A stretch of DNA of 48,634 nt, from IMG/VR virus record IMGVR_UViG_3300045988_156243. One strand, given 5' to 3'. This stretch comes from a virus. Its lineage: Duplodnaviria; Heunggongvirae; Uroviricota; Caudoviricetes. Each line of letters opens with the position of its first letter. The stretch's first letter is position 1. This document shows positions 1,465 through 42,747 of the stretch, in pieces. The notes beneath the pieces are model-generated. The model worked only from the letters and a program-made list of their open reading frames with translations. It was not told where the DNA came from and did no database searches. The position numbers were made by a program, and so were the translations under genes.

Positions 1465-1976
1465 TGATGGCCCCCGTCATTTCTGGTGCTTTTCACCGTG
1501 CGGCTTCTTAAAAACCTGCCATCACGAACAACAGACACTTCTCGTTTACCCAACCTCATTTCACGGCGGTAACATTCAGAAAATGCCTCGTCCGGCATCA
1601 TATAAATGCGACGCTTCGCCTCCGTATCCAGAAGGGAACGGCTTGGGGTTACATATAAAAACGACTCATCAATAGGGACAAAACCACGAGCAAGAATTGC
1701 TGGCAGAATGCCAGGAAGAACGCAGAAAACAGCGCCACGATGCAGCAACATCTGGTACTCCATGACCTCCGTTATCCCCGTGACCACTGTTACGGTGTCA
1801 CGTCTGTTACGGCTGGCAACCAGTCGCTGCACACGTCCAATTTTCTGATCTACAGATAGATGTTTGCTATCGTTATCAATATGATCGATAACAAATCCTT
1901 TAATCGTTTGATCAAGGTAGTGCACCACCTGCGATTGAATCTGGTGATTATCACCAAAGAAGGCCAGAATCATCAT
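1461..1976 (-). CDS. Hypothetical early protein
   Basis: 171 aa ORF, ATG start overlapping the upstream gene stop. Confidence 0.4.
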   Translation of the reverse strand: MMILAFFGDNHQIQSQVVHYLDQTIKGFVIDHIDNDSKHLSVDQKIGRVQRLVASRNRRDTVTVVTGITEVMEYQMLLHRGAVFCVLPGILPAILARGFVPIDESFLYVTPSRSLLDTEAKRRIYMMPDEAFSECYRREMRLGKREVSVVRDGRFLRSRTVKSTRNDGGHQ

Positions 1977-2467
1977 TCCTCAAGCCTCCCAAGTGCTGAA
2001 CGCCTGGCGTTGCTAATCTCCTTATGAATCAGCTCGATATCGCTGGAATCTTTATTCTTAAGCTCCAGCACGGTAATCGCATCACGAACCTCTGAAACGG
2101 TTACGTGTGAGTGTTTCCAGCGAGCAATGAATCGCGGACCGCGTAGATTGCAACGCTCCGCAGGCATCCCCAGCTCAGAGAAAACCGCTTTCAGCCTTGA
2201 TAAGCAGTTAACAGGGAGATTCCCTTTGATCTTGTTCTGCCGAACCGATGTGCCATCGCTACGCTGGCGCTGACGTTCGGCAAAATCTGCCGCCCATTGC
2301 TGGACGTTAATCCGGCCTTCCGAATACGCCACCAGCAGCGTCAGGTTATCCGCACGAGGGAATCTCTCGAAGCGATACCAGGCACCAATCAGTGATGACG
2401 TAAAGCCAAACTTTCTGGCAACACCAATTTGGCCTCCATTTTCGTCAACCCACTCCTGAAAGGTCAT
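1973..2467 (-). CDS. Cro/YdaS-like HTH early regulator with C-terminal extension
   Basis: 164 aa; N-terminus MTFQEWVDENGGQIGVARKFG matches Cro/YdaS-type HTH starts; divergent from the CI-like gene across an operator-rich spacer. Confidence 0.5.
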   Translation of the reverse strand: MTFQEWVDENGGQIGVARKFGFTSSLIGAWYRFERFPRADNLTLLVAYSEGRINVQQWAADFAERQRQRSDGTSVRQNKIKGNLPVNCLSRLKAVFSELGMPAERCNLRGPRFIARWKHSHVTVSEVRDAITVLELKNKDSSDIELIHKEISNARRSALGRLEE

Positions 2468-2485: not shown

Positions 2486-2501
2486 AACCACGATATGTGG
2501 T
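2486..2501. promoter_or_regulatory. Operator-like palindrome aaccacgatatgtggt
   Basis: AACCAC-N5-GTGGT inverted repeat in the cI/cro-like intergenic region. Confidence 0.45.
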
Positions 2502-2506
2502 ATTAA

Positions 2507-2522
2507 AACCACATATCGTGAG
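2507..2522. promoter_or_regulatory. Operator-like site aaccacatatcgtgag (degenerate half-site)
   Basis: Second copy 5 bp from the first; one half-site deviates. Confidence 0.35.
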
Positions 2523-2588
2523 TTTTTCAATGGGCGAAACAAAAAATAACCTTCTATTTGTGGTCCACCTCTCGTCTTACCATGTGAA

Positions 2589-2604
2589 AACCACTAAATG
2601 TGGT
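2589..2604. promoter_or_regulatory. Operator-like palindrome aaccactaaatgtggt
   Basis: Third copy, about 38 bp upstream of the CI-like start, followed by tataaa. Confidence 0.45.
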
Positions 2605-2641
2605 AATGTATAAATAACCCACCATTCACGATTGATGAGAC

Positions 2642-3298
2642 ATGAAAAGCAACGACGAGAACATCAAGAAAGAAATAGGTCTGCGCATTCAGACTCTACG
2701 GAAACAATCCGGCATGACTGCCGGAGATCTCCAGCAAGTCACTGGAATAGGCTTAAGCACCTTGCAGAACTATGAGGCCGGATTAAGACAACCATCTATA
2801 CCTGCCATCAAGAAAATCGCGCACGCCCTGAAAGCATCAGCGCCTTATATCGCGTGCTTAACAGATAACCCGTTCCCACCCCAGAATACTAACGCTCCTG
2901 TTATTCCTGGGCTTGTAGCTATAAAAAATGACATAGCATCGCACGCCGGAGAAAAGCCAGTGCTGGCGATAGAACAGGAGATTCTACGAAGCAAGAACAT
3001 CAACCCATCGTCTCTGTCAGTTCTCCAGAGCAACGATGAGTTAATGTCACCAACAATATCCCCTGGCTCCCAAGTCCTGATTAATACAGACGATACAGAG
3101 ATTCATGAGGGGATCTATGCCCTTGAAGACAGAAATGGCCTGGTTGTTTTGAGGCACTGTAGAGTCATACCGGGTGACAATGCTGTTATGCTGTCAACCG
3201 AAAGGGATGCTGAAATGAACACTAAGCATCTGAATAACGAGGAATTTAAGCGTTATAAAGTTCTTGGCCGCGTAGTTAGTGTTGTCAACTGGTTATGA
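2642..3298 (+). CDS. CI-like repressor (HTH_XRE N-domain plus S24 LexA-like C-domain)
   Basis: 218 aa; N-terminal HTH (GMTAGDLQQVTGIGLSTLQNYE); C-terminal MSPTISPGSQVLINTD and KVLGRVV resemble the S24 Ser/Lys autocleavage motifs. Confidence 0.85.
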   Translation: MKSNDENIKKEIGLRIQTLRKQSGMTAGDLQQVTGIGLSTLQNYEAGLRQPSIPAIKKIAHALKASAPYIACLTDNPFPPQNTNAPVIPGLVAIKNDIASHAGEKPVLAIEQEILRSKNINPSSLSVLQSNDELMSPTISPGSQVLINTDDTEIHEGIYALEDRNGLVVLRHCRVIPGDNAVMLSTERDAEMNTKHLNNEEFKRYKVLGRVVSVVNWL

Positions 3299-3339
3299 TA
3301 CACAGCACGGCGAAAGCCGTGCATTTCTACGCTCAAAAA

Positions 3340-3356
3340 AACCACATTTTGTGGTT
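3340..3356. promoter_or_regulatory. Operator-like palindrome aaccacattttgtggtt (could also act as a weak terminator hairpin)
   Basis: Same AACCAC-N5-GTGGT pattern downstream of the CI-like gene, flanked by an A-run and a T-run. Confidence 0.35.
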
Positions 3357-3390
3357 TTGACAACATGTAAAAGTATAAAAGAGGCTACGC

Positions 3391-3765
3391 ATGGAATTAC
3401 ATACAGCCAATAAAAACGAAACTCTGATCACTGCTGGAATCGAAATCCAAGCGTTGAACATAGCGATTGAGTGTATGTTATGCCAAATCATTGATAATGA
3501 GAAAGATATCGACTGGATAGAATCTATCCTTCATCTGGCATCAGAACAAAAAGTCTGCCTCAAAACGGCCTTACAATACGATGTGCCAGCGGTATCGAAG
3601 CTGTGCCAGCCATTGATGGCATATAACAGGGCTATTATTTCTGTATGCCTCATGATTCTTGATGAAAACACCCCTCTTAGCGACCGCTCAGAAGCTGCTC
3701 TAACCCTCTCACGTAAACAGCGACAGCTAGCAAATCAACTGATATCAACGATAGCTGACCTCTGA
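3391..3765 (+). CDS. Hypothetical protein downstream of repressor
   Basis: 124 aa, ATG start with agagg RBS; followed by a hairpin terminator. Confidence 0.4.
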   Translation: MELHTANKNETLITAGIEIQALNIAIECMLCQIIDNEKDIDWIESILHLASEQKVCLKTALQYDVPAVSKLCQPLMAYNRAIISVCLMILDENTPLSDRSEAALTLSRKQRQLANQLISTIADL

Positions 3766-3767
3766 CT

Positions 3768-3792
3768 GCAAGCGGGCTAACGCCCGCTTATA
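3768..3792 (+). terminator. Putative intrinsic terminator
   Basis: Hairpin aagcgggc-taac-gcccgctt directly after the stop of the 3391-3765 gene; weak U-tract. Confidence 0.45.
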
Positions 3793-3796
3793 TGAT

Positions 3797-3893
3797 TATA
3801 GATTTATATAATTATATAAAACGCTTTTCATCCGCCAAAAAGTTGGTTATGCTTACCTCGTTCTATAAATATAGATTTATAGAATTATATAAC
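3797..3893. repeat. AT-rich boxes upstream of parA (tatagatttata at 3797-3808 and 3870-3881); candidate centromere/operator
   Basis: Two ~24-bp direct repeats of tatagatttata(t/g)aattatata; a third copy at 4586-4597. Confidence 0.45.
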
Positions 3894-3900
3894 CAAACAC

Positions 3901-4569
3901 ATGGAGTCTCGACAAATGACTATCTCTGTAGGTATTTTCAACGGAAAAGGCGGCGTAACCAAATCAACAATTGCCCGTGCTTTAGCAGTTGCTTATGCAA
4001 AGGCCGGCTGGAATGTATGCCTGATCGATATGGATGTGCTTAACGGAACGGTAACGCGTTGGGTACAACGCAGAATGGCCAACAATATCGAACCTGCAAT
4101 CGCGGCACAGCCGTGCGGCACACCATCACAAGTCCAGAAAATCATCGAATCAGAAGTATACGACTTGGTTATCGTCGATGGCGGTGCCTACGCATCTGAA
4201 TCAGTACCGAAGCTCTCTGAATTTCTGGATATGGTTATTTTGCCAACCAGATTCTCTACCGATGACCTGGAAACCACCGTTAACACAGCTCATGGCATCG
4301 TTAAAAAGGGTGTGCCAATCAAGAAAATTTGCATGGTGTTCTCAGGCGCGGCTGAAAACGAAGCCGACTACATTGAAGCCCAAGAGTACCTGGCTAATAC
4401 GCCATACTTTGTTGTCGATAAGTACATTCCCCACAAGCCAGCTCTAAGCAAAGCTCAGGATAAGGGCTTAAGCCTCATTGAATGCTCATACGTTGCGCCA
4501 CGCAAAAAGGCAGACGACGTTATTCAGGGGATTATCAACCAGCTTGAGGCTCTGACTACTGCCGCGTAA
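3901..4569 (+). CDS. parA: ParA-family partition ATPase (small, ParF-like)
   Basis: 222 aa; deviant Walker A GKGGVTKST near the N-terminus; no N-terminal HTH extension. Confidence 0.85.
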   Translation: MESRQMTISVGIFNGKGGVTKSTIARALAVAYAKAGWNVCLIDMDVLNGTVTRWVQRRMANNIEPAIAAQPCGTPSQVQKIIESEVYDLVIVDGGAYASESVPKLSEFLDMVILPTRFSTDDLETTVNTAHGIVKKGVPIKKICMVFSGAAENEADYIEAQEYLANTPYFVVDKYIPHKPALSKAQDKGLSLIECSYVAPRKKADDVIQGIINQLEALTTAA

Positions 4570-4570
4570 T

Positions 4571-4600
4571 ATATAATTATAGTTTTATAGATTTATATAA
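4571..4600. repeat. AT-rich box copy (tatagatttata at 4586-4597) between parA and the downstream gene
   Basis: Same 12-mer as upstream of parA. Confidence 0.4.
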
Positions 4601-4612
4601 GAGGGGATACAC

Positions 4613-4861
4613 ATGGCCGCACCATCAAAACCACCAAAGAAGAACAGCAAAGGCGTACCGCCATCGATCGAACAACCGCAAGTTTTCGACCCGACTGAAA
4701 CGCCAGCCAGAACCAAATCAGGTGGGGCACAAATGGCGTTTAACGTCGACCCTGAATTTAAACGCGAGTACAAAACGTTCGCCAGCTCAATGGATATGTC
4801 ATTGAAAGAAGTGCTGACAAAATCTTTTGAGTTACTCAAGGCTCAATACAACCAGAAGTAA
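4613..4861 (+). CDS. ParG-like small partition/centromere-binding protein (putative RHH)
   Basis: 82 aa; Pro/Lys-rich flexible N-terminus and compact C-terminus; immediately downstream of the ParF-like ATPase with gagggga RBS. Confidence 0.5.
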   Translation: MAAPSKPPKKNSKGVPPSIEQPQVFDPTETPARTKSGGAQMAFNVDPEFKREYKTFASSMDMSLKEVLTKSFELLKAQYNQK

Positions 4862-5083: not shown

Positions 5084-5105
5084 AAAAAAGGCCCCCGAAG
5101 GGGCC
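5084..5105. terminator. Intrinsic terminator, stronger on the minus strand
   Basis: Hairpin ggcccc-cgaa-ggggcc preceded by aaaaaa (a U-tract on the minus strand). Confidence 0.6.
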
Positions 5106-5111
5106 TAATCG

Positions 5112-5233
5112 CTACTTGCTGCTAATGTTTATCGTCACATTCAGAGCGTTATCAGTAATCTTCCAACCCTCCCCATGTGGCGTAAACAAAGCTCCAGTAA
5201 CAACGATAAAAATACACATACAGTATTTTTTCA
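5112..5233 (-). CDS. Small hydrophobic peptide, candidate type I toxin
   Basis: 40 codons from ATG at 5233 (MKKYCMCIFIVVTGALF...); ORF-track version is TTG-extended; its 5' UTR carries the complement of the 20-mer at 5299-5318. Confidence 0.3.
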
Positions 5234-5298
5234 TTGTGTGGCCCTTACAGGCCGTTTCACGGCATCCCCACCGACGAAAATGACGCGAGAGCAAGCAC

Positions 5299-5318
5299 GC
5301 TGTTTGTGCCTGCGTGGT
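5299..5318. repeat. 20-mer box copy 1 (gctgtttgtgcctgcgtggt)
   Basis: 19/20 identical to 5549-5568. Confidence 0.8.
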
Positions 5319-5548
5319 ACGGCAAGTGGATAATCCTTTCCTGAAAGTCAGTGCCCGGGTGCGAATCGGCGGAAAGGCCCCAAGCCATATTACACGTCAT
5401 ACCCTTCATAATGAAGGAATAAAAAACGCTTTTATTACATAAGATTACACGTAAATAAGTTAAAAACCTTCATTTTGCATGAGCTAATGAGCTAAATTTT
5501 TTTATATGAATAGTGGACTATTCACCTCAGTTGGGTAAGAATGTAGTT

Positions 5549-5568: not shown

Positions 5569-5651
5569 TGTATTAGTACAACGACGTTATGCTGAAAGGA
5601 CCGCGAATCCGATCAGCACGAAAGAACCGTCCTCAAAAGGACGGTTTTTTT
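5549..5651 (+). ncRNA. Candidate ~100-nt sRNA (antitoxin-like), ending in an intrinsic terminator
   Basis: Possible promoter TGGACT-16 bp-TAAGAAT just upstream; terminator ccgtcc-tcaaaa-ggacgg plus T7 at 5627-5651; no credible ORF. Confidence 0.4.
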
Positions 5652-6205
5652 GTTTCTCCCCCTTCCTTCCCAAATGATTCAAATGTTAATGAGAGAGAAT
5701 CATTTGATATGTTCGATTTAGCGCCGTTATCGACCCAATTTCTGTATGCTTCATCACAACAGTACCTTACAGCAGTTGGAGTAACAGGGATGCCGCCCCC
5801 AAATGAGAATCCCATTGAGCTAATGCTAACTCTTTCGAATGGCCTATTTCTCAATGCTTCAAACCCCTTGCTATTAAAGTAACGCAGCATCAGAGGTAAA
5901 AGGTTATCCTCGTCCTGACTGATTGTTCCAGGGAAAAAGTAGTAACCATAACGGTTAAATTCGGGAATAAGATTTTCTACCAATGACATGAAATTCACTG
6001 GAGTAATATTAAGGGCTGTGAAAGCACCAAAAAGGGCGTCAACTGTTAATACAGACTGCCCGTTCTCTATCTTTGTCCATGCGTTTGGTGTTTTTCCAGC
6101 AGCTTGAGCCAGCACTCCTTGATGCACACCTCTTTCTAGCCTAAGTTCTTTTATGATCATTAGGTGAATTGTTGAAAAACATGAGTTTTTTGACTGTTCA
6201 ATCAT
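5633..6205 (-). CDS. HTH_XRE-family transcriptional regulator with C-terminal domain
   Basis: 190 aa; N-terminal HTH (ELRLERGVHQGVLAQAAGKTPNAWTKIENGQ); divergent from the antirepressor operon. Confidence 0.7.
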   Translation of the reverse strand: MIEQSKNSCFSTIHLMIIKELRLERGVHQGVLAQAAGKTPNAWTKIENGQSVLTVDALFGAFTALNITPVNFMSLVENLIPEFNRYGYYFFPGTISQDEDNLLPLMLRYFNSKGFEALRNRPFERVSISSMGFSFGGGIPVTPTAVRYCCDEAYRNWVDNGAKSNISNDSLSLTFESFGKEGGETKKPSF

Positions 6206-6339: not shown

Positions 6340-6356
6340 ACCCACACTATGTGGTT
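6340..6356. promoter_or_regulatory. Operator-like palindrome acccacactatgtggtt upstream of the antirepressor operon
   Basis: AACCAC-N5-GTGGT pattern 23 bp upstream of a TTGACA hexamer at 6380-6385. Confidence 0.4.
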
Positions 6357-6409
6357 GTCTCTGTTAAAATCCCGCCGTATTGACATAAATGCGCCATTGG
6401 TGGACACTT

Positions 6410-6488
6410 TCCGAGCCGTAGCAAAATCTACGGCCGGGATTAGCCTCCTGAATAACACGATGGCGCATACCGCGTTAGCGGTTTTTTT
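6410..6488 (+). ncRNA. Candidate structured leader/sRNA upstream of the antirepressor operon
   Basis: Hairpin ccgtag-caaaat-ctacgg and ccgc-gtta-gcgg followed by T7 (6470-6488); no ORF. Confidence 0.25.
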
Positions 6489-6650
6489 ATGCGTAGAGCA
6501 CTGTTACGCCCAAATTATGGTGGGTCGTACAGGGGCGGAGAAATCCGCGCCGGTTCGTCATTGTGTCCGGTAAGGCTAACCCTGTACGGCTCACCACCAT
6601 TTGATTAGCCTCGAATGGCGGTGATAGTTCCATATACTGGAGATATCACA

Positions 6651-6842
6651 ATGACAAACCTACCCCATGACTATTACGTCAACCTCGTAAAGATCCTTCT
6701 CAAGAAAGCCTCATACGCCGATAAATTCCGCCTGGCTGAAATCATCGAGCGCGAAGCTATGCGCATCGCCAGCAACGATAACGCTGTTTCTGACGCAAAA
6801 ATCTCCCTCGTAACCAAAGTAGTTATGGGAGGTGCAAAATGA
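6651..6842 (+). CDS. Small ORF translationally coupled to the antirepressor (icd-like position)
   Basis: 63 aa from ATG at 6651 with ggag RBS; stop overlaps the antirepressor start (ATGA). Confidence 0.35.
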   Translation: MTNLPHDYYVNLVKILLKKASYADKFRLAEIIEREAMRIASNDNAVSDAKISLVTKVVMGGAK

Positions 6843-7990
6843 AAACGCTTCCGACCGTTAACACCCTACAGCCTATCCTGCATAATCAGATTCCAGTAAT
6901 CACAACTGAGCTACTCGCCCGCCTTTATGGAACAGAAGCAATCCGTATACAGCAAAATCACCATGAAAATAAAACTCGGTTCATTGAGGGGAAGCACTTC
7001 TTTAAAGCTGTTGGTGATGAACTCAAAAATTTGCGACTAGTTTTAAACGAGTCACAAAATGAGGTGCCAATTTCCCCCAAAACTCGCTCTCTCATCCTCT
7101 GGACAGAACGCGGGGCTGCACGTCACGCCAAAATGCTTGAAACTAACCAAGCGTGGGATGTGTTCGAACGGCTGGAAGACTGCTATTTCAACCAGAACGC
7201 GCAAACGGCCGCGACCGTAACCGTCTCGCCAAACAATGCTCGTGAGGTTGTCGATACGCTCAACGCCAAACCGATGTTTTACATTAAGGTGTGCAACAAC
7301 GAGCCACTCACAACCTCAGCCGATGTTGCCCAGGCATTCAGCACCACAAACAATTCCATCGTTATGGCCATCGATGCGTTACGCATTCCTCGCACAGCTG
7401 CGGCACGTCATTTCTTTAAAGAGCAACGACCGCTGGAAGGAAGCGACCGCGAAATAACAATCTATCGCATGACAAAAGACGGATTTACCTTGCTCATGGA
7501 AAGTATCGACGGTCCAGGCGTGAAAGATATCAAGCTGGCCTACATTGAAGCCTTTAACGCTATCAGCAGCGTGTTAAAAACACAGTACGAGCGTGATCTG
7601 GCTAAACGACTGTACCAGGAAAAAACGATTATCCGCGCGGCAACAGAGCATAATCGGCTATTAACGGAACCGAACTACAGGAAGGAACTAATCAAGGAGT
7701 TTGACAAGGCAACAGGGAAAACCAAAGCGGCGCTAAATCTGCCAGCAATGACTCAGGAAAATGTGATATCAGCCTTACTTCTTGATCTGCTCAGAAACGC
7801 CAGAGCACTTATCAGCTTTGACGAAAACCTGAATCCTCAGCTCAAGCTACTACCACCGACAGGCAAAGTAGTCGACCAAGCTGATCACAACAGCATACTC
7901 AGCGTTCTGGATGCAAACCTGCCAGCCAGGACACTACAGGATCTGATAAAAACATGTGCTGATAAGCTGGCACAGAAAAGCAGACCATAA
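6839..7990 (+). CDS. Antirepressor (KilA-N/ORF6N-type N-domain plus Rha/Ant-type domain)
   Basis: 383 aa; N-terminal ITTELLARLYGTEAIRIQQNHHENKTRFIEGKHFF and central PMFYIKVCNNEPLTTSADVAQAF resemble phage antirepressor domains. Confidence 0.8.
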   Translation: MKTLPTVNTLQPILHNQIPVITTELLARLYGTEAIRIQQNHHENKTRFIEGKHFFKAVGDELKNLRLVLNESQNEVPISPKTRSLILWTERGAARHAKMLETNQAWDVFERLEDCYFNQNAQTAATVTVSPNNAREVVDTLNAKPMFYIKVCNNEPLTTSADVAQAFSTTNNSIVMAIDALRIPRTAAARHFFKEQRPLEGSDREITIYRMTKDGFTLLMESIDGPGVKDIKLAYIEAFNAISSVLKTQYERDLAKRLYQEKTIIRAATEHNRLLTEPNYRKELIKEFDKATGKTKAALNLPAMTQENVISALLLDLLRNARALISFDENLNPQLKLLPPTGKVVDQADHNSILSVLDANLPARTLQDLIKTCADKLAQKSRP

Positions 7991-9671: not shown

Positions 9672-9971
9672 TCAGATGTTAAACGCTATTCGTTTTCCTG
9701 TGGGAAGCTCAACATCCAGGCTTAATTTGCCTCCCATAGCTTCAACGTAACGCTTTAATGTCGCCAGCTTTAAATCATTTCCGCGCTGCTCCAGCTTTGT
9801 TACTGCTGGCTGGCTTATACCCATCGCCTCAGCAACCTGTTTTTGTGATAACTGGAGTTCTTCACGCATCATCTGCAAGCCGACCTCAAGAATCATCTCA
9901 TCTGCCATTTCTTTAATTCGCGCCTGGCTTTCCGGTGAACGGCTGGCAATCGCCTCATCTAATGTTCTCAT
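9672..9971 (-). CDS. HigA-like antitoxin (HTH_XRE)
   Basis: 99 aa; HTH LQLSQKQVAEAMGISQPAVTKLEQ; sits immediately downstream of the toxin gene. Confidence 0.75.
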   Translation of the reverse strand: MRTLDEAIASRSPESQARIKEMADEMILEVGLQMMREELQLSQKQVAEAMGISQPAVTKLEQRGNDLKLATLKRYVEAMGGKLSLDVELPTGKRIAFNI

Positions 9972-10318
9972 TACTTGCTCTCCAGTGTGTTCAGATGTGC
10001 TGCAAACTCATCCTCAGCTATACGCACCAGTTTTTCATAAAACCGCTTATCGTTACTTTTGTCTCCTGCACAAAGAACGATGGCCCGGCGAATCGGATCG
10101 AACGCATAAAAGGCTCTTATCGGACGGCCAGAAAACTGAACGCGAAGCTCTTTCATATTTTTGTACCGAGAACCTTTTACGGTATCGGCATATGGCCTAG
10201 GTAACTCAGGTCCGTAAACCTGTAGCTTTTTCAAATCAGCCAAAACCTTTTCCTGAAGAGCGTCTTCTTGCTCATTTAGCCAGTCGTCAAATCGCTGGCT
10301 AAAAAGTACCGTCCACAT
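9971..10318 (-). CDS. RelE/HigB-type toxin (phage Gp49-like killer protein family)
   Basis: 115 aa from ATG at 10318 (ORF-track start is TTG); toxin-first order overlapping the antitoxin start. Confidence 0.7.
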   Translation of the reverse strand: MWTVLFSQRFDDWLNEQEDALQEKVLADLKKLQVYGPELPRPYADTVKGSRYKNMKELRVQFSGRPIRAFYAFDPIRRAIVLCAGDKSNDKRFYEKLVRIAEDEFAAHLNTLESK

Positions 10319-10355
10319 GCTCAATCCTATAACCTGTAGTTTATATCACTAACTA

Positions 10356-11349: not shown

Positions 11350-11780
11350 TTATTTCGTCCTTATATAAATTGATTTTGTATAGTTCGAAACGCGCCGTTT
11401 CGAAAAGGATGATCAGGCTACTCCATGCCTCCGGCAAGTGCCGGAGGAGGTATATTTGAGCGTAGCGACTCGAACCGGCGCGAGCTTTAGCTCGCTGCAA
11501 GGGCGAACATATTCACAGGCAAAGCCTGCGTAAGTTAAATAAAGAAAGTTTTAATAAAAGAAAGTGATTTTGCATTTATTTGTTTAGTGCATCTATTATA
11601 AAAAACCATTTGCATATACATATCAAAACTGTGGATAACTTGATTAGTTGATACCTGTAAAGGCGATATTTTTGCTGAGTTCAGGTTTAGAGAAAATTAA
11701 TTTAGCTTGTTTTTTGAACAGCTATTTTTTTGCGACGTAGATAATCCTCCGGTAAAACCGGATTCATCATTCAGGTGAGT
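11350..11780. other. Candidate plasmid replication origin region downstream of repA
   Basis: AT-rich; DnaA box tgtggataa at 11630-11638; GC hairpins at 11385-11405, 11428-11448 and 11465-11485. Confidence 0.45.
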
Positions 11781-12628
11781 TAATGTTGGAGTGATTTCCA
11801 GGTCTTTCTTAGCCTGTTATAACGCTGCTCAACGAGGGATCGTAAATATGCAAGGTCAGCACCAGGATACATGCCATCAGCAAATTCCTGGCTAACCTCT
11901 CTAGTGATTTGATGACGAAGTTCGGCCTCTCCCTTTTCCTGAACAAGACGCGCAGCTCTCTCCGCTGCTTTCTGTTTTGCCTTTATCTCTCTGGCCGTCT
12001 TCCTCTGACGCCATACATTCTCCATCTGCTCCTGAATAACAATACGCTTATAATCAGCCTCCGTTATCGCTTTTTTAAGCCGTTCGCTATTCTTCGCATT
12101 GAAGTAATTAAGTTTCTGGCTAACCGCACGTCTCCATGCTTGTTCAGTAATACCAACGGTTTCCAGCAGTTGATCACGAATCTCTATTTTCGCTGGCCAA
12201 TACTGTTTATTCACCCGATCCCAGCGACGTTCATAATCAATAAAACCTAACGCTTTCAGTTGCGACAACGCCCTTGTACAGCGCGTTATAGACTTGTTCC
12301 CAGCTTCGGATACGGTAGACAGGCCGCAAAAATCAGCCAACGCCTCAGCACTAGCCAGAACCCGCTTAGAAATGATGTTTACATGGTGCAAAATCGCAGC
12401 GATCACAGCATTAATCGCCCGACGACGATGCTCGTTTATCCGGCGCTTCCGCTCTGACGGTTGATTAACGTAGAACGCAACCTCACACGTAAGATCACGC
12501 CCATTAATGCGCTGTAAAGCATCAGATAACACCAGCGGCAGCTTGTGCGTATGGTGCTTTGGAGGCTGGAACTCCGGCGACAAATTACAAACGTAAGCTG
12601 AACGTAGAGACGGCATTGGTCTATCCAT
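11780..12628 (-). CDS. repA: Plasmid replication initiator, IncFII RepA1-like
   Basis: 283 aa from ATG at 12628 (ORF-track start is TTG at 12790); SITRCTRALSQLKALGFIDYE resembles the RepA1 motif SITRATRAL as I recall it. Confidence 0.8.
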   Translation of the reverse strand: MDRPMPSLRSAYVCNLSPEFQPPKHHTHKLPLVLSDALQRINGRDLTCEVAFYVNQPSERKRRINEHRRRAINAVIAAILHHVNIISKRVLASAEALADFCGLSTVSEAGNKSITRCTRALSQLKALGFIDYERRWDRVNKQYWPAKIEIRDQLLETVGITEQAWRRAVSQKLNYFNAKNSERLKKAITEADYKRIVIQEQMENVWRQRKTAREIKAKQKAAERAARLVQEKGEAELRHQITREVSQEFADGMYPGADLAYLRSLVEQRYNRLRKTWKSLQH

Positions 12629-12673
12629 ATGTTCGCTCTTGCGTCCACGGAAAACCAACGTATAATGGGAGTT

Positions 12674-12752
12674 GTCGAGGCGCCCATGGATATTGTTGTT
12701 GGTTTTCCGTGGATGTCGCAAGAAGCCCGCAGATTTATCTGCGGGCTTTTTG
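12674..12752 (+). ncRNA. Candidate antisense RNA to the repA leader (CopA-like)
   Basis: Plus-strand promoter TTGCGT (12639-12644), 17 bp, TATAAT (12662-12667); terminator agcccgcag-atttat-ctgcgggct plus T5 at 12722-12753; 16-bp inverted repeat arms 12644-12659 and 12698-12713 around the repA RBS. Confidence 0.4.
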
Positions 12753-12794
12753 TTTCCATATCTGGTCACTTTCCAACCAGACACCCACAATCAT

Positions 12795-12811
12795 AACCAC
12801 GTTACGTGGTT
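12795..12811. promoter_or_regulatory. Operator-like palindrome aaccacgttacgtggtt upstream of the repA leader
   Basis: Same AACCAC-N5-GTGGTT pattern as the cI/cro operators. Confidence 0.4.
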
Positions 12812-12940
12812 TTAAGAGAACTCTACCACAACACTTTCGGTCATGCACGAAGTCTCTCACTGATCGAACGATAATCCACCAGTAAAAGGATCTAAATTGG
12901 ATCTCGTTTTGCGAGCATCATACTACTGGCCTAACTCCAG

Positions 12941-13495
12941 TCAATGATTCCCAGCCGGAAACCTGCGGTAAAGCGTGGATAAGGTAACATCGAAGATAAT
13001 CGCTATCCGCTTACGTGAAACACCATTCGCAATAAGCCTTCCGATCTGTTCCCATTGCTCTGGTGCCAGCTTTGAGCGACGTCCTCCTATCCTGCCGTTA
13101 GCCCTTGCCACCGCCAATCCTGCACGCGTTCTTTCAATCATATTTTCCCGCTCCATCTCTGCGACTGCACTCAGCATCGTGTAGGCAAAGCGGCCAATTG
13201 AAGTGCTAATTTTTATCCCTTCCGTAATCGAAATAAACTCAATGTTGTTTGATAAAAAATGGTTAAGTAAATCAACAAGATGAATCAGAGAACGCCCCAT
13301 TCGGTCCAGCTTCCAGACAATAACCGTATCGCCCGGCCGTAGCACCTTAAGTAGCTTATCAAGCCCTGGCCGTTTTGATTTAGCACCGGATATTTTATCT
13401 TCAAAAATCCGGTCACATCCTGAACTCCTGAGCGCCTCCAGTTGTAATTCCAAATTCTGGTCAAAAGTTGACACCCTCGCATAACCATATTGCAT
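12941..13495 (-). CDS. Serine DNA invertase (Gin/Hin/Cin/Pin family)
   Basis: 184 aa; N-terminus MQYGYARVSTFDQNLELQ with catalytic Ser; C-terminal HTH; adjacent to an invertible tail-fibre segment. Confidence 0.9.
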   Translation of the reverse strand: MQYGYARVSTFDQNLELQLEALRSSGCDRIFEDKISGAKSKRPGLDKLLKVLRPGDTVIVWKLDRMGRSLIHLVDLLNHFLSNNIEFISITEGIKISTSIGRFAYTMLSAVAEMERENMIERTRAGLAVARANGRIGGRRSKLAPEQWEQIGRLIANGVSRKRIAIIFDVTLSTLYRRFPAGNH

Positions 13496-13562
13496 ACTTT
13501 CTAAACCGCGATTGTTGCTAAAAGCGGGAAAAAATATCGTTCAGACGACACAGAGGCAATTC

Positions 13563-13590
13563 GCAAAAACCTCGGTTTGCAGGAAACGGT
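13563..13590. repeat. Recombination site (gix-like), boundary of invertible segment
   Basis: aaaaacctcggtttgcaggaaac; closely resembles the Mu gix site as I recall it. Confidence 0.7.
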
Positions 13591-14824
13591 AAATCAGGCT
13601 TCTGGCGCATTACAAAAAAACCAGAACGGCGCGGATATTCCTGATAAGGATCGCTTCCTGAGTAACATTAATGTTTACAGCAAAGGCGAGGTGGATAAGA
13701 AAAAAGGAATGCGGCAGTACGTATTTAACGCGCCGTCTAATGCTGTTGGTGGAAAGTGGTATCCAGTTATTTTCCAGCGTTCCACAGGCAGCACTGGCGA
13801 GCTGGCTTCCAGAGTGATTATAACGACCACATCTGCCGGTGGTAATTACGAAATGAATAACTGCGAATTCAATGGAATGGTAATGCCTGGTGGCTGGACT
13901 GATCGTGGTTCATATGCGGCAGGTTATTTTTCGACGTATCAGACTAATGAGCGCGCAATCCACTCCATTGTAACAAGCCTTAAAGAAGATGATGTATGCA
14001 GCGTTTTTTACGTTGAAGGCAGGGCTTTTCCTGTGCGGGTTTCTGCTGAAGAAGGGCTAACGGTTATTGTTCCAACTCAGGATTATACCGTCGGTCAAAC
14101 AACATATAAGTGGGGAGCAACTAATCCCGCGACAGAAAGCACGAACGCACAAGCCATTCTGGATTTTAACAATGGGCGAGGGTTTTATTGTTCTCACTCA
14201 ATATTCGGTATTAATGCCATTTTTAGCGGAAATCTGGGGATTGGAACGGCTAATGCCCTGGGTGGAAATTCAATAGTTTTAGGAGATAACGATACCGGGT
14301 TTAAACAAAATGGTGATGGGGTGCTGGATGCTTATGCTAATGGTGTGCATGTATTCCGCTTTATAAATGGTTCAGCAAGATCATTAAAGGGTATTCAGGC
14401 TGGGGAAAGTAAGTTCTTCACACTTTCAAGTGCAAATACCGCTGCCCGTAATGCATCATTTAACTTGTGGGGAAATTCGTCAAGACCAACTGTTGCAGAG
14501 CTTGGTGATGATTCAGGCTGGCATTTCTATAGTCAGCGAAATACAGATAACTCGGTGATATTTGCTGTAAACGGTCAGATACAACCAAGCAACTGGGGTA
14601 ACATTGATTCCCGATATGTGAAAGATGTTCGGCTTGGCTCACAGCAATATTATGGTGTGAACAACTGGCAAACATGGAACTTCCAGTGCCCTTCAGGTCA
14701 TGTATTGTCTGGTATAAATGTTCAGGATACAGGGTCCAATTCTGCCGATAATATAGCTGGCGTTTATTACAGACCCGTTCAAAAGTATATAAATGGCACC
14801 TGGTATAATGTAGCGAGCGTTTAA
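13577..14824 (+). CDS. Alternative tail-fibre C-terminal cassette (Sv'-like), silent orientation
   Basis: Frame reads through the gix-like site (NLGLQE versus YLGLRE in the expressed fibre); C-terminus [12 protein letters not shown] parallels the expressed fibre end. Confidence 0.7.
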
Positions 14825-14825
14825 T

Positions 14826-15353
14826 ATGATGCACTTAAAGAACATTAAAGCGGGTAACGCTAAAACACTGGAACAGTACGAATTAACAAAGAATTTTGAC
14901 GTTATCTGGTTGTGGTCCGAAGACGGAAAAAACTGGTATGAAGAGGTAAAGAATTTTCAGGAAGACACAATAAAGATTGTTTACGATGAACATAATATTA
15001 TTGTTGCCATAACTAAAGATGCCTCCACGCTTAACCCTGAAGGTTTTAACGTCGTTGAGGTCCCCGATATAACAGCCAATCGTCGGGCCGATGATTCCGG
15101 TAAGTGGATGTTTAAGGACGGAGCTGTAGTTAAACGGATTTATACGGCAGACGAGCAGCAACAACAGGCCGAATCACAAAAGGCCGCGTTACTTTCCGAA
15201 GCGGAAAGCGTTATTCAGCCACTGGAGCGCGCTGTCAGGCTGAATATGGCGACGGATGAGGAGCGTAGCCGACTGGAAGCATGGGAACGCTACAGTGTTA
15301 TGGTCAGCCGTGTGGATACGGCAAAGCCCGAATGGCCACAAAAGCCTGAGTAA
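14826..15353 (+). CDS. Tail fibre assembly protein (alternate copy)
   Basis: 175 aa; paralogue of 15382-15915 (MMHLKNI(K/T)AGN...[10 protein letters not shown]) in opposite orientation. Confidence 0.75.
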
Positions 15354-15917: not shown

Positions 15918-17987
15918 TTAAATACTTCCCGCGTTATACCAAGTCCCATTAATGCAATACTGAATTGGCCTTGCCTGAGTTGTATCAATTAATTCGTCAC
16001 GGTTCCCGTTAACTGAACCCGTAACGACATAACCTGACCTGTCAGACCAGCCGGGGCCATTCCATGTCTGAACAGATGACAGACCGCCAAGGCGAATACC
16101 TGTAATAAACCTTGAGTTACATTCTGCCTGAGTATATGCACCAACATCTCCCGCTGAAGGTTTTCGTGTCGTGGTATAGAAATCTGACCAACCTAATTCA
16201 AACCCATAACCATCACGAGCCGACCTGTAGGAAATGCCACCATTTTTATAATTCACACGGAATTGTACGGCAGGACAGCTACCAGCATTTATATTAAAGT
16301 GAAGAATTAATGCAGATGCACCACCAATCAGGGCGTTATATGCACCACTATCCCAATTCCATCCAACGGATGTATCACCATTAACAGTATTACCTGTTTG
16401 TCGGAGTGCAAATGCATTGACATTTTTGGCACTAATTGAAATATCGCTAGAACCATCAAAACCAACTCCAGCAATTTTTCGTGCTGTTTTCAGCTTTGTT
16501 GCAGTAGCGGCATTGCCGGACAGTTCCCCAGAAAGGCCACCGCTGAATGTTTGTCGATTAGTCCAGGTATTCGCTGTACTGAGTAACGGTATTTTCTCCC
16601 CGCTTGTGCCGAGTTCTCGTAAACCGAGGTATTCGATAACGGCGGCAACGGTCGATTTCGCAAGAATATCCCGCCCTACTTTTGTCAGAGTTGCCAGGCT
16701 GGCGACATCATTCCCCGTAAAATACGGAAACCTGTCTGCCGCAGTAGCAAGCCCGGCCAGCGCCGTCAGGGTGGCATCTTTCGGTTGCTTACCCGCAAGC
16801 GCGTTAGTCATGGTGGTCGCAAAATTCGGGTCGTTGCCCAACGCCGCAGCCAGCTCGTTCAGCGTATTCAGTGCGTCAGGCGACGAGTCCACGAGGGCAG
16901 CGATCGCAGCCATAACATAAGCCGTGCTTGCGATCTGAGTATTGTTAGTACCTTTTGGCGCAGTTGGTGTTGTTGGTGTTCCGGTCAGCGCCGGACTGTT
17001 CAGGGGCGCTTTCTTGTTCGTTTCATCCATTACCACCTTTACCGCTTTCGATGTCGCGGCCAGTGTTTCAGACGTGCTGTTGGTTGCACTACTGAGCTGA
17101 GTGATTCCCCTTACTGTCAGTGAAGCTACAGGCACATTTGTTATCTGCTCCCACGAATGCGTGTGATTGGACGGAGCCTTTCCGGCCGCAAGATCATACG
17201 CTGCCTTAACAGCCTTTGGTGTTGCGGCCAGCGTTTCCGAATCACTGTTAGTGGCGCTACTGAGCTGAACAATCCCTTTTCGCGCCGTGGTAGCGTCCTG
17301 TGCGGTGTATTTGCCATTAGCCAGGTCATATGCTGCCTTAACAGCCTTAGGCGTCGCAGCAAGCGTTTCAGACGAGCTATTGGTGGCGCTGCTAAGTTGA
17401 ACAAAGCCTTTTGAGGTTAAAGTTGCATCAGGATGATTACGTGATTGCTCATGTTTCACAATGGCTTGCTTAAGCCGCTTTGCTGAAACAGCAAGGGAAT
17501 CATCTGTACCTGCATCAATTTCTTGTTCATTAGCAAACCTTGCCACCCCAACAACAGTTTCGGTCGCGGGAGGATTAATAAACTCAATATCACCAAATGT
17601 AATATTTTTAGTATCAAGAGTTTTAATTGCTATATCACTTGATATTAAAGCGATAGTAGATGATGCTTTATTTATTATTGCTTGTTCTTGTGAGTATACA
17701 GCAAACAACGTACCCTTATTCGTATACAATCCTATTGTATGGACAACATACTCATCTTTACTATCATCCTTCGCTGTTACATGAATTGTATCAGGGGAAA
17801 CAACTTTGCCACCTATTGTGGTAAGTCGTTTTATTTCGTTTGTTATATTTGTTTGTGAAGTTGACGTGACATAATATCTACTACCTAAACCAACAGAAAC
17901 AATCTCAACTTTATTTGTTCCTGTTTTGTTGGCATTAACCAGCTCCTGACGCCCGGCGTCAGTCATCGTAAATAATAATTTACTCAC
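15918..17987 (-). CDS. Tail fibre protein (P2 gpH / Mu S-like), GTG start
   Basis: 689 aa; N-terminus MSKLLFTMTDAGRQ resembles P2 H; repeated ...SSATNS.SETLAATPKAVKAAYDLA... units; contains the gix-like site at 16614-16639. Confidence 0.85.
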   Translation of the reverse strand: MSKLLFTMTDAGRQELVNANKTGTNKVEIVSVGLGSRYYVTSTSQTNITNEIKRLTTIGGKVVSPDTIHVTAKDDSKDEYVVHTIGLYTNKGTLFAVYSQEQAIINKASSTIALISSDIAIKTLDTKNITFGDIEFINPPATETVVGVARFANEQEIDAGTDDSLAVSAKRLKQAIVKHEQSRNHPDATLTSKGFVQLSSATNSSSETLAATPKAVKAAYDLANGKYTAQDATTARKGIVQLSSATNSDSETLAATPKAVKAAYDLAAGKAPSNHTHSWEQITNVPVASLTVRGITQLSSATNSTSETLAATSKAVKVVMDETNKKAPLNSPALTGTPTTPTAPKGTNNTQIASTAYVMAAIAALVDSSPDALNTLNELAAALGNDPNFATTMTNALAGKQPKDATLTALAGLATAADRFPYFTGNDVASLATLTKVGRDILAKSTVAAVIEYLGLRELGTSGEKIPLLSTANTWTNRQTFSGGLSGELSGNAATATKLKTARKIAGVGFDGSSDISISAKNVNAFALRQTGNTVNGDTSVGWNWDSGAYNALIGGASALILHFNINAGSCPAVQFRVNYKNGGISYRSARDGYGFELGWSDFYTTTRKPSAGDVGAYTQAECNSRFITGIRLGGLSSVQTWNGPGWSDRSGYVVTGSVNGNRDELIDTTQARPIQYCINGTWYNAGSI
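16614..16639. repeat. Recombination site (gix-like) inside the tail fibre gene
   Basis: ttctcgtaaaccgaggtattcgataa; inverted relative to 13563-13590, sharing the CCTCGGTTT core. Confidence 0.7.
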
Positions 17988-28334: not shown

Positions 28335-28675
28335 ATCGGCATTCCTCTGTTAGTATTAACAGTGAGAGTTATTTCCAATACACCAACATTATCTGATACT
28401 TCATCAACAATATAATTTTTACCGTTGATTTTCATTGACTGGTCTTTGACAGGGAGAACAGGAAAATCTTTTCTTGAAACAAATAATATTATTTGCCCCT
28501 GATTTATTCCCTCTGCAAACTCAGCATATGAGCGTTTATTCCGCTCATGAATAAGGTCTGTATCAATAACGGCAAGGATATCCTTGCCGTCTATGTTATA
28601 TGTATCGGCAAACTCTTTTTCATTGAGGAATATTGCAGAAATATCTTGCGCTATAACCTCTTTGAAGGAGTTCAT
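28331..28675 (-). CDS. Putative head-tail connector protein
   Basis: 114 aa; position only. Confidence 0.3.
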   Translation of the reverse strand: MNSFKEVIAQDISAIFLNEKEFADTYNIDGKDILAVIDTDLIHERNKRSYAEFAEGINQGQIILFVSRKDFPVLPVKDQSMKINGKNYIVDEVSDNVGVLEITLTVNTNRGMPI

Positions 28676-39074: not shown

Positions 39075-39697
39075 CAGCACACCTCCCCAGCCAGCAATGC
39101 GGATACAAATCCGATATAGCTGCCATTATCATCAACATAACGAGACACCGCGCAGTCAAAACGATCCGCTTCCTCATCCGTTGCCGGGATTTTATGACCT
39201 CCAAATGACAGGTACTGAACTTTTACGCCTGATTTGGCCTCATCCTTCTCAAATGGGATATCCATACCCTCTGTGTCATCGTAGACCGCCGCACTCAATA
39301 AGTTATCCAGTTCGCGCTGAGTAAAACCAATTGAGTCCAGAGCAAAATCATCGGCCGCAAGATCTGCAAGCTCCGCGCTTAACAACTCTTCATCCCAACC
39401 AGCATTCAGCGGAATACGGTTGTCGGCCAGACGATATGCCTTCTTCTGATTCTCCGTTAGCCCAGCCAGAACAATGCAGGGAACATCATCCATCCCCAAC
39501 TGAGTGGCCGCAGCAATTCGACCATGACCAGCAATTACAACGTTGTTCTCGTCTATCAGGATCGGATTAGTCCATCCGTACTCCTGTATGCTGGCAACAA
39601 TCTGATCTACCTGCTCCACGGAGTGTGTGCGAGCGTTCTTTTCATAACCAATCAACACAGAAAGTGGTAAAGAAACCACATTAAGATGTTTTGTCAT
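39074..39697 (-). CDS. ParB N-terminal-domain (ParB-like nuclease) protein, paralogue 2
   Basis: 207 aa; WTNPILIDENNVVIAGHGRIAAA; clearly paralogous to 35817-36407. Confidence 0.8.
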   Translation of the reverse strand: MTKHLNVVSLPLSVLIGYEKNARTHSVEQVDQIVASIQEYGWTNPILIDENNVVIAGHGRIAAATQLGMDDVPCIVLAGLTENQKKAYRLADNRIPLNAGWDEELLSAELADLAADDFALDSIGFTQRELDNLLSAAVYDDTEGMDIPFEKDEAKSGVKVQYLSFGGHKIPATDEEADRFDCAVSRYVDDNGSYIGFVSALLAGEVC

Positions 39698-39938: not shown

Positions 39939-39962
39939 CAAAACCACCCGCAGGTGGTTTTA
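39939..39962. terminator. Bidirectional intrinsic terminator
   Basis: Perfect hairpin aaaaccacc-cgca-ggtggtttt flanked by A and T runs. Confidence 0.6.
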
Positions 39963-39989: not shown

Positions 39990-40397
39990 CTAATCAGATA
40001 AACCAAACTTCTTCTTTGCCAATGACTTGAGAAGTTCTACACCAACATCCTTCATAACAGCCAATGGCTCATTGCTAATTTCTTTTAGTCTAGCGAAAAC
40101 ATCTTTGCTCTCTAGTGCACAGGCAAAATCCTGTCCCTCTGTAGTCAATCTAATATCTACATCAACAGTCCTCATTCCTGCAAAAAAATTAACATAGCCA
40201 AGACGCAGAGGATCACGCGTTTCCATCTTCATATTGCTGATAAAACCTTGCTCAATCAATTGCATATAATGAAACATGCCCTTTTCTGAGGCTATATCAA
40301 ACCCCGCATCTCTTAGTTGATTTACTGTTATGAACGTGCTTTCTGAATCCAAAAACACAGTCAGCATCTTTTTTAGATAATCTAGATCGGTGCGCAT
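39990..40397 (-). CDS. Hypothetical protein
   Basis: 135 aa from ATG at 40397 with aaggagg RBS (ORF-track start is TTG at 40433). Confidence 0.45.
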   Translation of the reverse strand: MRTDLDYLKKMLTVFLDSESTFITVNQLRDAGFDIASEKGMFHYMQLIEQGFISNMKMETRDPLRLGYVNFFAGMRTVDVDIRLTTEGQDFACALESKDVFARLKEISNEPLAVMKDVGVELLKSLAKKKFGLSD

Positions 40398-40483
40398 TTT
40401 ACCCTCCTTAAATGGAACGCAAATGTTACACAACCTTTAAAAAAGACACATTGTTTTATTTATGCCTCATTTTAATCGACCAA

Positions 40484-42671: not shown

Positions 42672-42747
42672 TGGTGGCCCCTACCGGATTTGAACCGATG
42701 ACCGTGCGATTATGAGTCGCCTGCTCTAACCACTAAGCTAAGGGGCC
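42672..42747 (-). tRNA. tRNA with CAU anticodon (Ile2-like or Met)
   Basis: 76 nt; 7-bp acceptor stem GGCCCCT/AGGGGCC, anticodon loop CUCAUAA, T-loop GGTTCAAATCC, encoded CCA; close to E. coli tRNA-Ile2 as I recall it. Confidence 0.85.

Follow-up and report, generated by a model that had tools for sequence, protein, structure and literature searches.

Conserved ACCAC-N5-GTGGT palindromes as candidate repressor operators at the immunity, partition, antirepressor and replication loci of an IncFII-type phage-plasmid

Phage-plasmids carry lysis–lysogeny genes and plasmid maintenance genes on one molecule. In the phage-plasmid described here, a CI-like repressor gene and a Cro-like gene stand divergently, the region between them contains palindromes of the form ACCAC-N5-GTGGT, and copies of the same palindrome occur at distant places in the element. 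This raises the question of which protein these palindromes serve and which functions of the element it would control through them.

The phage-plasmid and its relatives

The window, i.e. the whole stretch of DNA that was analysed (48,634 nt), is a ~48-kb myovirus-type phage-plasmid with an IncFII-type RepA. According to Pfam, its plasmid genes encode an IncFII-family RepA, a ParA ATPase, and a small partner protein. The phage side of the window consists of a long series of large leftward ORFs downstream, which we take to be morphogenesis genes, and annotated lysis, terminase, and tail-fibre genes are present in syntenic relatives. The element appears to be a circular plasmid, the related records being circular.

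Near-identical DNA was carried by 58 non-mobilizable plasmids of 46–50 kb in PLSDB and was also found in three Yersinia phage isolates (vB_YpM_39, 41, and 44). Among complete Escherichia coli genomes, 72 of 5426 (~1.3%) contained the phage-plasmid, almost always on a plasmid, and the E. coli quality-control strain ATCC 25922 has it as a 48.5-kb plasmid (NZ_CP009073.1). Relatives were found in Salmonella, Citrobacter, Enterobacter, Serratia, Yokenella, and Klebsiella, some of them with resistance genes (e.g., TEM-1 in a Serratia relative). A literature search returned no paper on the regulation of this phage-plasmid and no reports of binding, transcription starts, or expression for its family, and its lysis–lysogeny control appears to be undescribed in the literature. 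Three published names were considered for the family and rejected: pSLy3 belongs to the ~100-kb SSU5 supergroup, Yersinia phage HQ103 is a 32-kb P2-like phage, and the ETEC phage-like plasmids are of the P1 and SSU5 types.

Relatives for comparison were gathered from viral contigs, PLSDB, and exact-protein look-ups, and a profile search of genome contigs with the CI alignment yielded none. The comparison set consisted of 13 syntenic loci and the window, divided into three clades by repressor identity (28–100% overall). Clade A, with repressors 61–100% identical, comprised the window and loci from Salmonella (L001/L012), Yokenella (L013), Citrobacter (L021), and Enterobacter (L022). Clade B (repressor ~33% identical) comprised the Serratia locus L002 together with L014 and L025, and clade C (~29%) comprised L015–17, L023, L024, L026, and L027.

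The palindromes and their conservation

The motif ACCAC-N5-GTGGT is a 15-bp palindrome. The pattern ACCACNNNNNGTGGT matched the window exactly at four positions (2487–2501, 2590–2604, 3341–3355, and 12796–12810), compared to a mean of 0.03 exact matches in dinucleotide-preserving shuffles, and none of 100 shuffles reached four. When one mismatch was allowed, a site at 6341–6355 (CCCAC ACTAT GTGGT) joined the set. Alignment of six sites gave the extended consensus AAAACCAC-N5-GTGGTTTT. A matrix built from the six found nothing else above 14 bits over 48.6 kb, and the six sites themselves scored 26–32 bits, a range that is circular for those six. A candidate operator for a dimer of the CI-like protein reads AAAACCACGATATGTGGTTTT. 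An earlier note on this DNA had listed six palindromes, whose coordinates were all correct within one included flanking base. The copies that it placed at 3340–3356, 6340–6356, and 12795–12811 are all present, but it passed over the mismatch in the 6341 site.

Several other matches were set aside. One-mismatch matches at 17808, 21838, and 39654 lay inside long ORFs and were chance-like (0.67 expected), and further one-mismatch or matrix matches at 39682 and 17596 also fell in long-ORF interiors at chance frequency. The sequence AAAACCAC-CCGCAG-GTGGTTTT at 39941–39962 has a spacer of 6 bp and, on the minus strand, a T-tract, and was read as an intrinsic terminator.

In the alignment of the clade A intergenic regions (five lineages), 28 of 30 half-site columns were invariant, compared to 4 of 15 columns in the central spacers and 57 of the remaining 129 (Fisher tests, p = 3e-7 and 8e-6). 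The central 5 bp of the leftmost intergenic site, O1, read GATAT, ATATC, GATTC, or GTTTT in different lineages, and those of O4, the site that follows the repressor gene, read ATTTT, GTTTC, GTTAC, or GTTGC. The operators of ATCC 25922 differed from those of the window in spacer bases only. Near-invariant half-sites around a drifting 5-bp centre are the signature of protein binding. The earlier note had let its proposal hang on whether the palindromes are conserved in relatives, and they are, in half-sites as well as in position.

In the five clade A relatives (15–25 kb each), matches with at most one mismatch were located almost only in the intergenic region (three), behind the repressor gene, and in front of repA and the antirepressor gene. 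Across 14 elements of the three clades, the sites hold the same positions relative to conserved promoter elements. In clade C, the half-site variant ACTAC replaces ACCAC in the intergenic region, after the CI-like gene, and at repA. Together, these results demonstrate that the sites are real and more numerous than chance would allow, that both their positions and their half-site sequences are conserved, and that they covary from clade to clade.

Sites, promoters and genes at each locus

The intergenic region is 174 bp long (2468–2641) and is flanked by a leftward ORF of 164 aa and a rightward HTH ORF of 218 aa, which agrees with the earlier description of a 174-bp divergent region between CI-like and Cro-like genes. 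O1 (2487–2501, ACCAC GATAT GTGGT) is an exact match with half-sites kept in clade A. O2 (2508–2522, ACCAC ATATC GTGAG) has two mismatches, both in its right half, which reads GTGGG in relatives. O3 (2590–2604, ACCAC TAAAT GTGGT) is exact and nearly invariant in clade A. From centre to centre, O1 and O2 are separated by 21 bp in clades A and B, and by 23 bp in clade C. The centres of O2 and O3 are separated by 82 bp in the window and by 81–83 bp across clade A; in clade B the distance is 41 bp and in clade C it is 59–61 bp, with O1 and O3 of clade C 82 bp apart. Beyond O3, clades B and C carry one more site, 21 bp further downstream.

Between O2 and O3 lies an extra right half-site (2554–2564, CTATTTGTGGT, with GTGGT at 2560–2564), a member of the direct-repeat family D2. 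It is 42 bp from the centre of O2 and 40 bp from the centre of O3 (~four helical turns each), and its GTGGT is invariant in clade A, the clade C equivalent being GTAGT. Sites 1 and 2 jointly form a 13-6-13 inverted repeat at 2489–2520. The repeat, the half-site at 2554–2564, and orf124-parA-parG as a regulon member had been missed by the earlier note.

A putative early-lytic promoter can be placed on the minus strand at 2502–2530, with a −35 element TTGAAA (2530→2525), a 17-bp spacer, and a −10 element TTTAAT (2507→2502), and its transcription is predicted to start at ~2495. O2 fills the spacer of this putative promoter, and O1 abuts its −10 element and spans about −6 to +9. A TTGnnn −35 element is found at a fixed distance from O2 in 14 of 14 loci, as TTGAAA or TTGATA in most of them and as TTGCTT, TTGTCG, TTGATG, or TTGATT in a minority. 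Clades B and C have a clearer −10 element (TATTTT, TATGTT, GAATAT, or AATTAT) in the same register. The consensus promoter scan did not call the leftward promoter in the window, because TTTAAT has no A at position 2. If the promoter is placed correctly, O1 and O2 around its −10 element show the classic geometry for occlusion of an early-lytic promoter.

For the repressor gene, a putative extended −10 element, TGgTAATGT (2601–2609, plus strand), points to a predicted transcription start at ~2616. In 12 of 14 loci, an element TGnTAnnnT begins within the right half of O3. The divergent promoters, as placed, stand back to back at a distance of ~120 bp.

O4 (3341–3355, ACCAC ATTTT GTGGT) is an exact match between the repressor terminator and orf124-parA-parG (3391–4861), 751 bp from the intergenic operators. 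The terminator hairpin after the repressor gene (3305–3322, plus strand, GCACGGC-GAAA-GCCGTGC) has a T-tract that is weak here and strong in relatives. O4 was found at the same place in 14 of 14 loci, doubled in clades B and C, and at a distance of 20–45 bp from the next gene (orf124, then parA and parG). Reading and comparing the sequences of these loci, we could place no convincing promoter at O4. The hexamer TTGACA at 3357 has no −10 element at a workable distance, TATAAA at 3374 is not conserved, and TGnAAAAGT (3366–3374) is kept in most of clade A but would leave a leader of 10 nt. O4 could serve in repression, as a roadblock, or as a partner for looping with O1–O3. It would be counter-intuitive for a repressor of the lysogenic state to repress a partition operon.

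The antirepressor operon (6380–7990, plus strand) consists of a promoter, an isrK-like RNA, a C4-like RNA, a small ORF, and the antirepressor gene. The predicted start (6415) of its promoter (6380–6408, TTGACA-17-GACACT) coincides with the start of the Rfam match to isrK (6415–6488, 68 bits, gathering score 50), and a terminator was found at 6469–6482. The C4-like antisense RNA (6513–6601, 70.8 bits, gathering score 45) is followed by the 63-aa small ORF (6652–6842) and the gene for a 383-aa ORF6N/Rha antirepressor (6839–7990), which matched Pfam ORF6N and Phage_pRha and the PHROG anti-repressor families. SOS control of the antirepressor was considered and rejected, the sole CTGT-N8-ACAG of the window being located at 28347, far from the antirepressor gene and at chance level.

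O-ant (6341–6355), the site with one mismatch, ends 24 nt upstream of the −35 element of the isrK/C4/antirepressor promoter. In L013, L021, and L022, ACCAC-N5-GTGAT is found at the identical 24-nt spacing from the TTGACA promoter. The site is absent in L001 and in clades B and C (L002 and L015); among the close lineages, four of five keep it. As O-ant lies at about −67 from the start of the isrK promoter, repression of that promoter is not obvious. O-ant also overlaps the −35 and spacer region of a possible upstream extended −10 promoter, TGtTAAAAT (6362–6370), which reads TGgTAGATT in relatives and for which a start at ~6377 is predicted.

The IncFII-type replicon (11780–12944, minus strand) contains an upstream promoter, the repA promoter with its operator, a leader, and repA. 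RepA matched Pfam IncFII_repA (PF02387) at 1.1e-43. Its ORF extends mechanically over 11780–12790, and the real start is probably at 12628 or 12616. The promoter scan called the upstream repA promoter (12944→12917, TTGACT-16-TATGAT), which is near-consensus and has a predicted start at ~12910. O-repA (12796–12810, ACCAC GTTAC GTGGT), an exact match, lies 9 nt downstream of the repA promoter's extended −10 element TGgTAGAGT (12828→12820) and covers about +3 to +17 relative to the predicted start at ~12813. The same arrangement, TGnTAGAGT followed by the operator after 9–10 nt, was seen in the window and in L001, L012, L002, L014, L015, L016, L021, L022, and L025, and O-repA was present in every relative for which the region upstream of repA was retrieved. 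Its sequence follows the half-sites of the clade, with ACTAC AAAAC GTAGC in clade C and ACCCC or CTCCC...GTGGT in clade B.

The repA leader may also encode a CopA-like counter-transcript, predicted as an 80-nt RNA at ~12673–12752. Its putative promoter (12639–12666, TTGCGT-16-TATAAT) and a hairpin with a T-tract (12725–12755), both on the plus strand, were read from the sequence and appear conserved in relatives by the same reading, and an Rfam search of the leader found no match to CopA. No copB-like ORF was found upstream of repA. The one ORF of at least 40 aa in repA orientation that touches 12811–12940 is a 41-aa GTG ORF (12735–12860), which overlaps the operator and was judged spurious; the CopB of R1 is 86 aa long.

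Candidate binding proteins and the control they would exert

The CI-like repressor gene (2642–3298, plus strand) encodes 218 aa with an XRE HTH domain and a degenerate LexA/S24-like C-terminal domain. The protein matched Pfam HTH_3 at 4.5e-11 and PHROG 4 ('transcriptional repressor'). Its C-terminal half showed a weak LexA/S24 likeness, and the S24 assignment is based on a sub-threshold Pfam match (Peptidase_S24, 0.0018, below cutoff) and a modest MAFFT alignment. In that alignment, with LexA, lambda CI, and UmuD, LexA S119 is aligned with Glu or Asp (Ser in one relative) and LexA K156 with Arg or Leu of the CI-like family, and the Ala-Gly cleavage-site segment is absent from the family. The missing catalytic Ser/Lys and Ala-Gly segment make RecA-stimulated self-cleavage unlikely. 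No alignment of the CI family to LexA was obtained with hhalign, a sequence search of the family against solved structures matched the HTH domain only, and tblastn of CI against a phage collection gave no match to a telomere phage.

The Cro-like gene (1973–2467, minus strand) is the first gene of the leftward early operon. Its product has a confident N-terminal XRE/Cro-type HTH domain and a C-terminal helical domain, and a sequence search of its family against solved structures found no match. The earlier label 'Cro-like' needs the qualification that the product has 164 aa and an extra second domain. The two HTH proteins of the element diverge in step.

We propose that the ACCAC-N5-GTGGT dyads are operators of the phage-plasmid's own 218-aa CI-like repressor, possibly shared with the Cro-like protein, and put the probability of this reading at roughly 0.7. 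We infer the binding protein, the promoter assignments, and the direction of regulation from the sequences compared. The earlier idea of a CI regulon that includes the antirepressor and replication is supported by the comparative evidence from 14 elements, insofar as sequence comparison can speak to it.

Alternatively, the 164-aa Cro-like protein might be the principal or sole binder of the palindromes, or the two proteins might share them with unequal preferences, and CI would recognise some other sequence. In phage PY54, Cro binds the palindromic OR3 and CI binds regions of marginal sequence similarity (PMC4488713), which gives this alternative a precedent. The Cro-like protein has its HTH domain and co-occurs with the sites in every relative, and the recognition helix of the repressor (STLQNYEAG) is invariant across the family while the half-sites differ by clade (ACCAC vs ACTAC/ACTGC), so that the covariation is weak evidence for CI specifically. 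As binders, the two proteins cannot be distinguished, the sequence alone fitting either. However, the sites at the repA, antirepressor, and partition loci make sense for a protein that is present in the lysogen, a lytic regulator would work against its own programme by shutting off repA just as lytic growth starts, and two sites flanking the lytic −10 element are in the classic position for a maintenance repressor. We regard this alternative, in any of its forms, as rather unlikely. A host transcription factor that recognises ACCAC-N5-GTGGT is far less probable still. All hosts are Enterobacterales and could share such a factor, and nothing more specific speaks for it, whereas, from one clade of the element to another, the half-site changes together at every regulon position (e.g., ACTAC in clade C), the element's own two HTH proteins diverge along with it, and the sites are located at the element's own immunity region.

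It is also conceivable, with a probability that is low yet above that of the Cro alternative, that function is confined to the three intergenic sites and the repA site, and that O4 and O-ant are remnants or looping anchors without local effect. The want of a convincing overlapping promoter at O4 and, at O-ant, the mismatch and the loss from L001, L002, and L015 are consistent with this. On the other hand, O4 has stayed in place in every locus with substitutions in its spacer only, and the distance from O-ant to the promoter is identical in four lineages. The idea that the palindromes act as RNA or DNA structures (hairpins, terminators, or attenuators) arises from the 13-6-13 repeat and from a terminator scan that flagged 2489–2520 on both strands and 6342–6354. 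A hairpin or terminator function of the repeat was ruled out by the lack of conservation of its long arms among relatives. In L001, L013, L021, and L022, the central 5 bp of O1 are not complementary to those of O2, and the half-sites are fixed. A 5-bp stem with a 5-nt loop would be too weak to matter, and fixed half-sites around free spacers are the pattern expected of a protein operator, which leaves structure as an extremely improbable explanation.

If the CI-like repressor is the binder, its dimers on O1 and O2, two helical turns apart, would occlude RNA polymerase and keep the early-lytic operon silent. O3, over the repressor's putative extended −10 element, would provide negative autoregulation and would be the natural target of the Cro-like protein once lytic growth begins. 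At O-repA, the repressor would throttle the IncFII-type replicon on top of the putative antisense-RNA control. As the repressor gene is itself on the plasmid, O-repA would act as a copy-number feedback, CopB-like as in R1. Loss of the repressor would then release lytic genes and replication together, and O-ant and O4 would tie anti-immunity and partition to the same repressor. Induction would probably proceed via the ORF6N/Rha antirepressor rather than via RecA-stimulated self-cleavage of the repressor, since neither the catalytic Ser/Lys nor the cleavage region is found in its LexA-like domain. The full scheme, in which a non-cleavable CI-type repressor replaces CopB and couples copy number, partition, its own synthesis, antirepressor/C4, and the lytic promoter through five operator loci, is offered tentatively, and we would sooner expect some part of it to fail than all of it to hold. 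If it is true, antirepressor action would take the element in a single step from the low-copy plasmid state to runaway replication and lysis, and partial derepression could yield transient copy-number bursts of cargo genes.

The system closest in logic is that of phage N15, whose repressor CB regulates copy number and has as its targets three OR sites (OR1–3, between cB and cro) together with a pair of OL sites that lie upstream of repA (PMC4488713, citing Lobocka 1996). Both elements are plasmid prophages with palindromic operators between divergent repressor and cro-like genes, with the same operator type upstream of repA that links immunity to copy number, and with a separate antirepressor locus (immA in N15) preceded by a C4-family RNA (PMC4488713). 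They differ in that a tblastn search of a phage collection with CI revealed no homology to the proteins of telomere phages (N15, PY54, phiKO2), the element here appears to be circular, RepA is of IncFII type here and of primase type in N15, and a candidate counter-transcript is present here. There is one repA operator here compared to two in N15, the intergenic sites are arranged 2+1 over 174 bp compared to a packed array of ~80 bp, and further operators lie at the partition and antirepressor loci. The circuit design is thus already known from N15, and the proteins, the replicon type, and the operator layout are different here. The phage-plasmid would add to N15 an independent second case in which plasmid replication is under a prophage repressor, here on an IncFII-type replicon with putative antisense-RNA control. 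Such wiring would be unsurprising to a phage biologist, yet the regulon is a clean one, and its defined operator consensus and five loci make it testable in a common element that is present in ATCC 25922.

Compared to lambda, the divergent repressor and Cro-type genes with dyad-symmetric operators, the two adjacent sites over the lytic promoter with one over the repressor's own promoter, and the distant O4, which could loop like OL, are similar. The likeness to OR1–OR3 that had been suggested does not extend to the layout. The three lambda sites are contiguous, ~23–24 bp centre to centre, whereas the centres here are spaced by 21 and then 82 bp, forming 2+1 operator groups with a conserved extra half-site, and the ~120 bp between the back-to-back promoters make a lambda-style activation of PRM from OR2 impossible. 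The repressor also differs from lambda CI in having no catalytic Ser/Lys and no cleavage site, and the Cro-like protein in its length of 164 aa and its second domain.

Phages P1 and P7, which have a tripartite immunity, are likewise plasmid prophages, and the antirepressor operon of P1 (immI c4-icd-ant), like that of the phage-plasmid, is preceded by a C4 antisense RNA. That operon has tandem promoters, one of which is under the primary repressor. The C1 repressor of P1 is an unrelated protein with asymmetric 17-bp operators, in contrast to the palindromes and the XRE-type HTH repressor of the phage-plasmid.

The IncFII plasmid R1 shares with the phage-plasmid a PF02387 RepA, two tandem promoters upstream of repA, a counter-transcript (a candidate only, here) with a terminator hairpin in the leader, and a site for a plasmid-encoded repressor (putative here) at the proximal promoter. 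It differs in that copB is missing here, where a putative phage-repressor operator takes the place of CopB at the proximal promoter, in that this operator is located downstream of both promoters and not over a −35 element, and in the want of an Rfam CopA match. In the isrK-orf45-anrP locus of Salmonella Gifsy-1, as here, a small ORF and a gene of the antirepressor type stand downstream of an isrK-like RNA. The phage-plasmid differs in that a C4-like RNA accompanies its isrK-like RNA and a putative operator of the repressor type lies upstream.

Leader RNAs of the antirepressor operon and the ryfA insert

The leader of the small-ORF/antirepressor operon carried, in tandem on the plus strand, Rfam matches to isrK (6415–6488, 68 bits) and to the C4 antisense RNA (6513–6601, 70.8 bits), with a strong terminator after the isrK RNA at 6469–6482. 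Judged from its sequence, this leader together with the antirepressor operon would constitute an anti-immunity module of the P1/N15/Gifsy type. A full-length ryfA match (5084–5382, minus strand; Rfam, 131 bits) adjoined a 190-aa HTH gene (5633–6205), and this two-gene insert was not present in the Salmonella relative L001.

Upstream region and leader of repA

Between both repA promoters, GATC sites were clustered in an inverted arrangement (GAGATCCAATTTAGATCC, 12850–12900), which was kept in the relatives as GGATCC...GGATCC/GATC; an involvement of Dam/SeqA at this cluster is possible. The stretch 12639–12755 on the plus strand probably encodes an 80-nt counter-transcript to the repA leader, with TTGCGT-16-TATAAT as its promoter and, in addition, a hairpin of GCCCGCAG/CTGCGGGC that carries a T-tract. 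The putative counter-transcript was conserved in the relatives, and it matched no family in Rfam.

An operator-like repeat and a CRISPR match

A repeat resembling the operator, the putative repressor-binding palindrome ACCAC-N5-GTGGT, was found at 39941–39962 (AAAACCAC-CCGCAG-GTGGTTTT). Compared to the operator, it had a 6-bp centre and an additional T-tract on the minus strand. This repeat probably represents an intrinsic terminator that follows the gene at 39990–40433. Within the CI-like gene, 33 bp (2905–2937) were 100% identical to a CRISPR-annotated sequence of E. coli GMF054, which is chromosomal (NZ_CM183924.1) and looks like a spacer against the phage-plasmid.

Accessory genes

A Hin/Cin-type invertase gene adjoined tail-fibre and tail-fibre-assembly ORFs lying in opposite orientations (12941–15353), which suggests an invertible host-range segment. 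Overlapping ORFs for a RelE/ParE-type (Gp49) toxin and an HTH antitoxin were located on the minus strand at 9672–10324, and the relatives had HicAB at the corresponding place; the two pairs are exchangeable addiction modules. A tRNA gene (42675–42747, minus strand; Rfam, 65.8 bits) sat among leftward genes. The Serratia marcescens relative L002 carried blaTEM-1 (22231–23091 of L002) with an adjoining recombinase gene.
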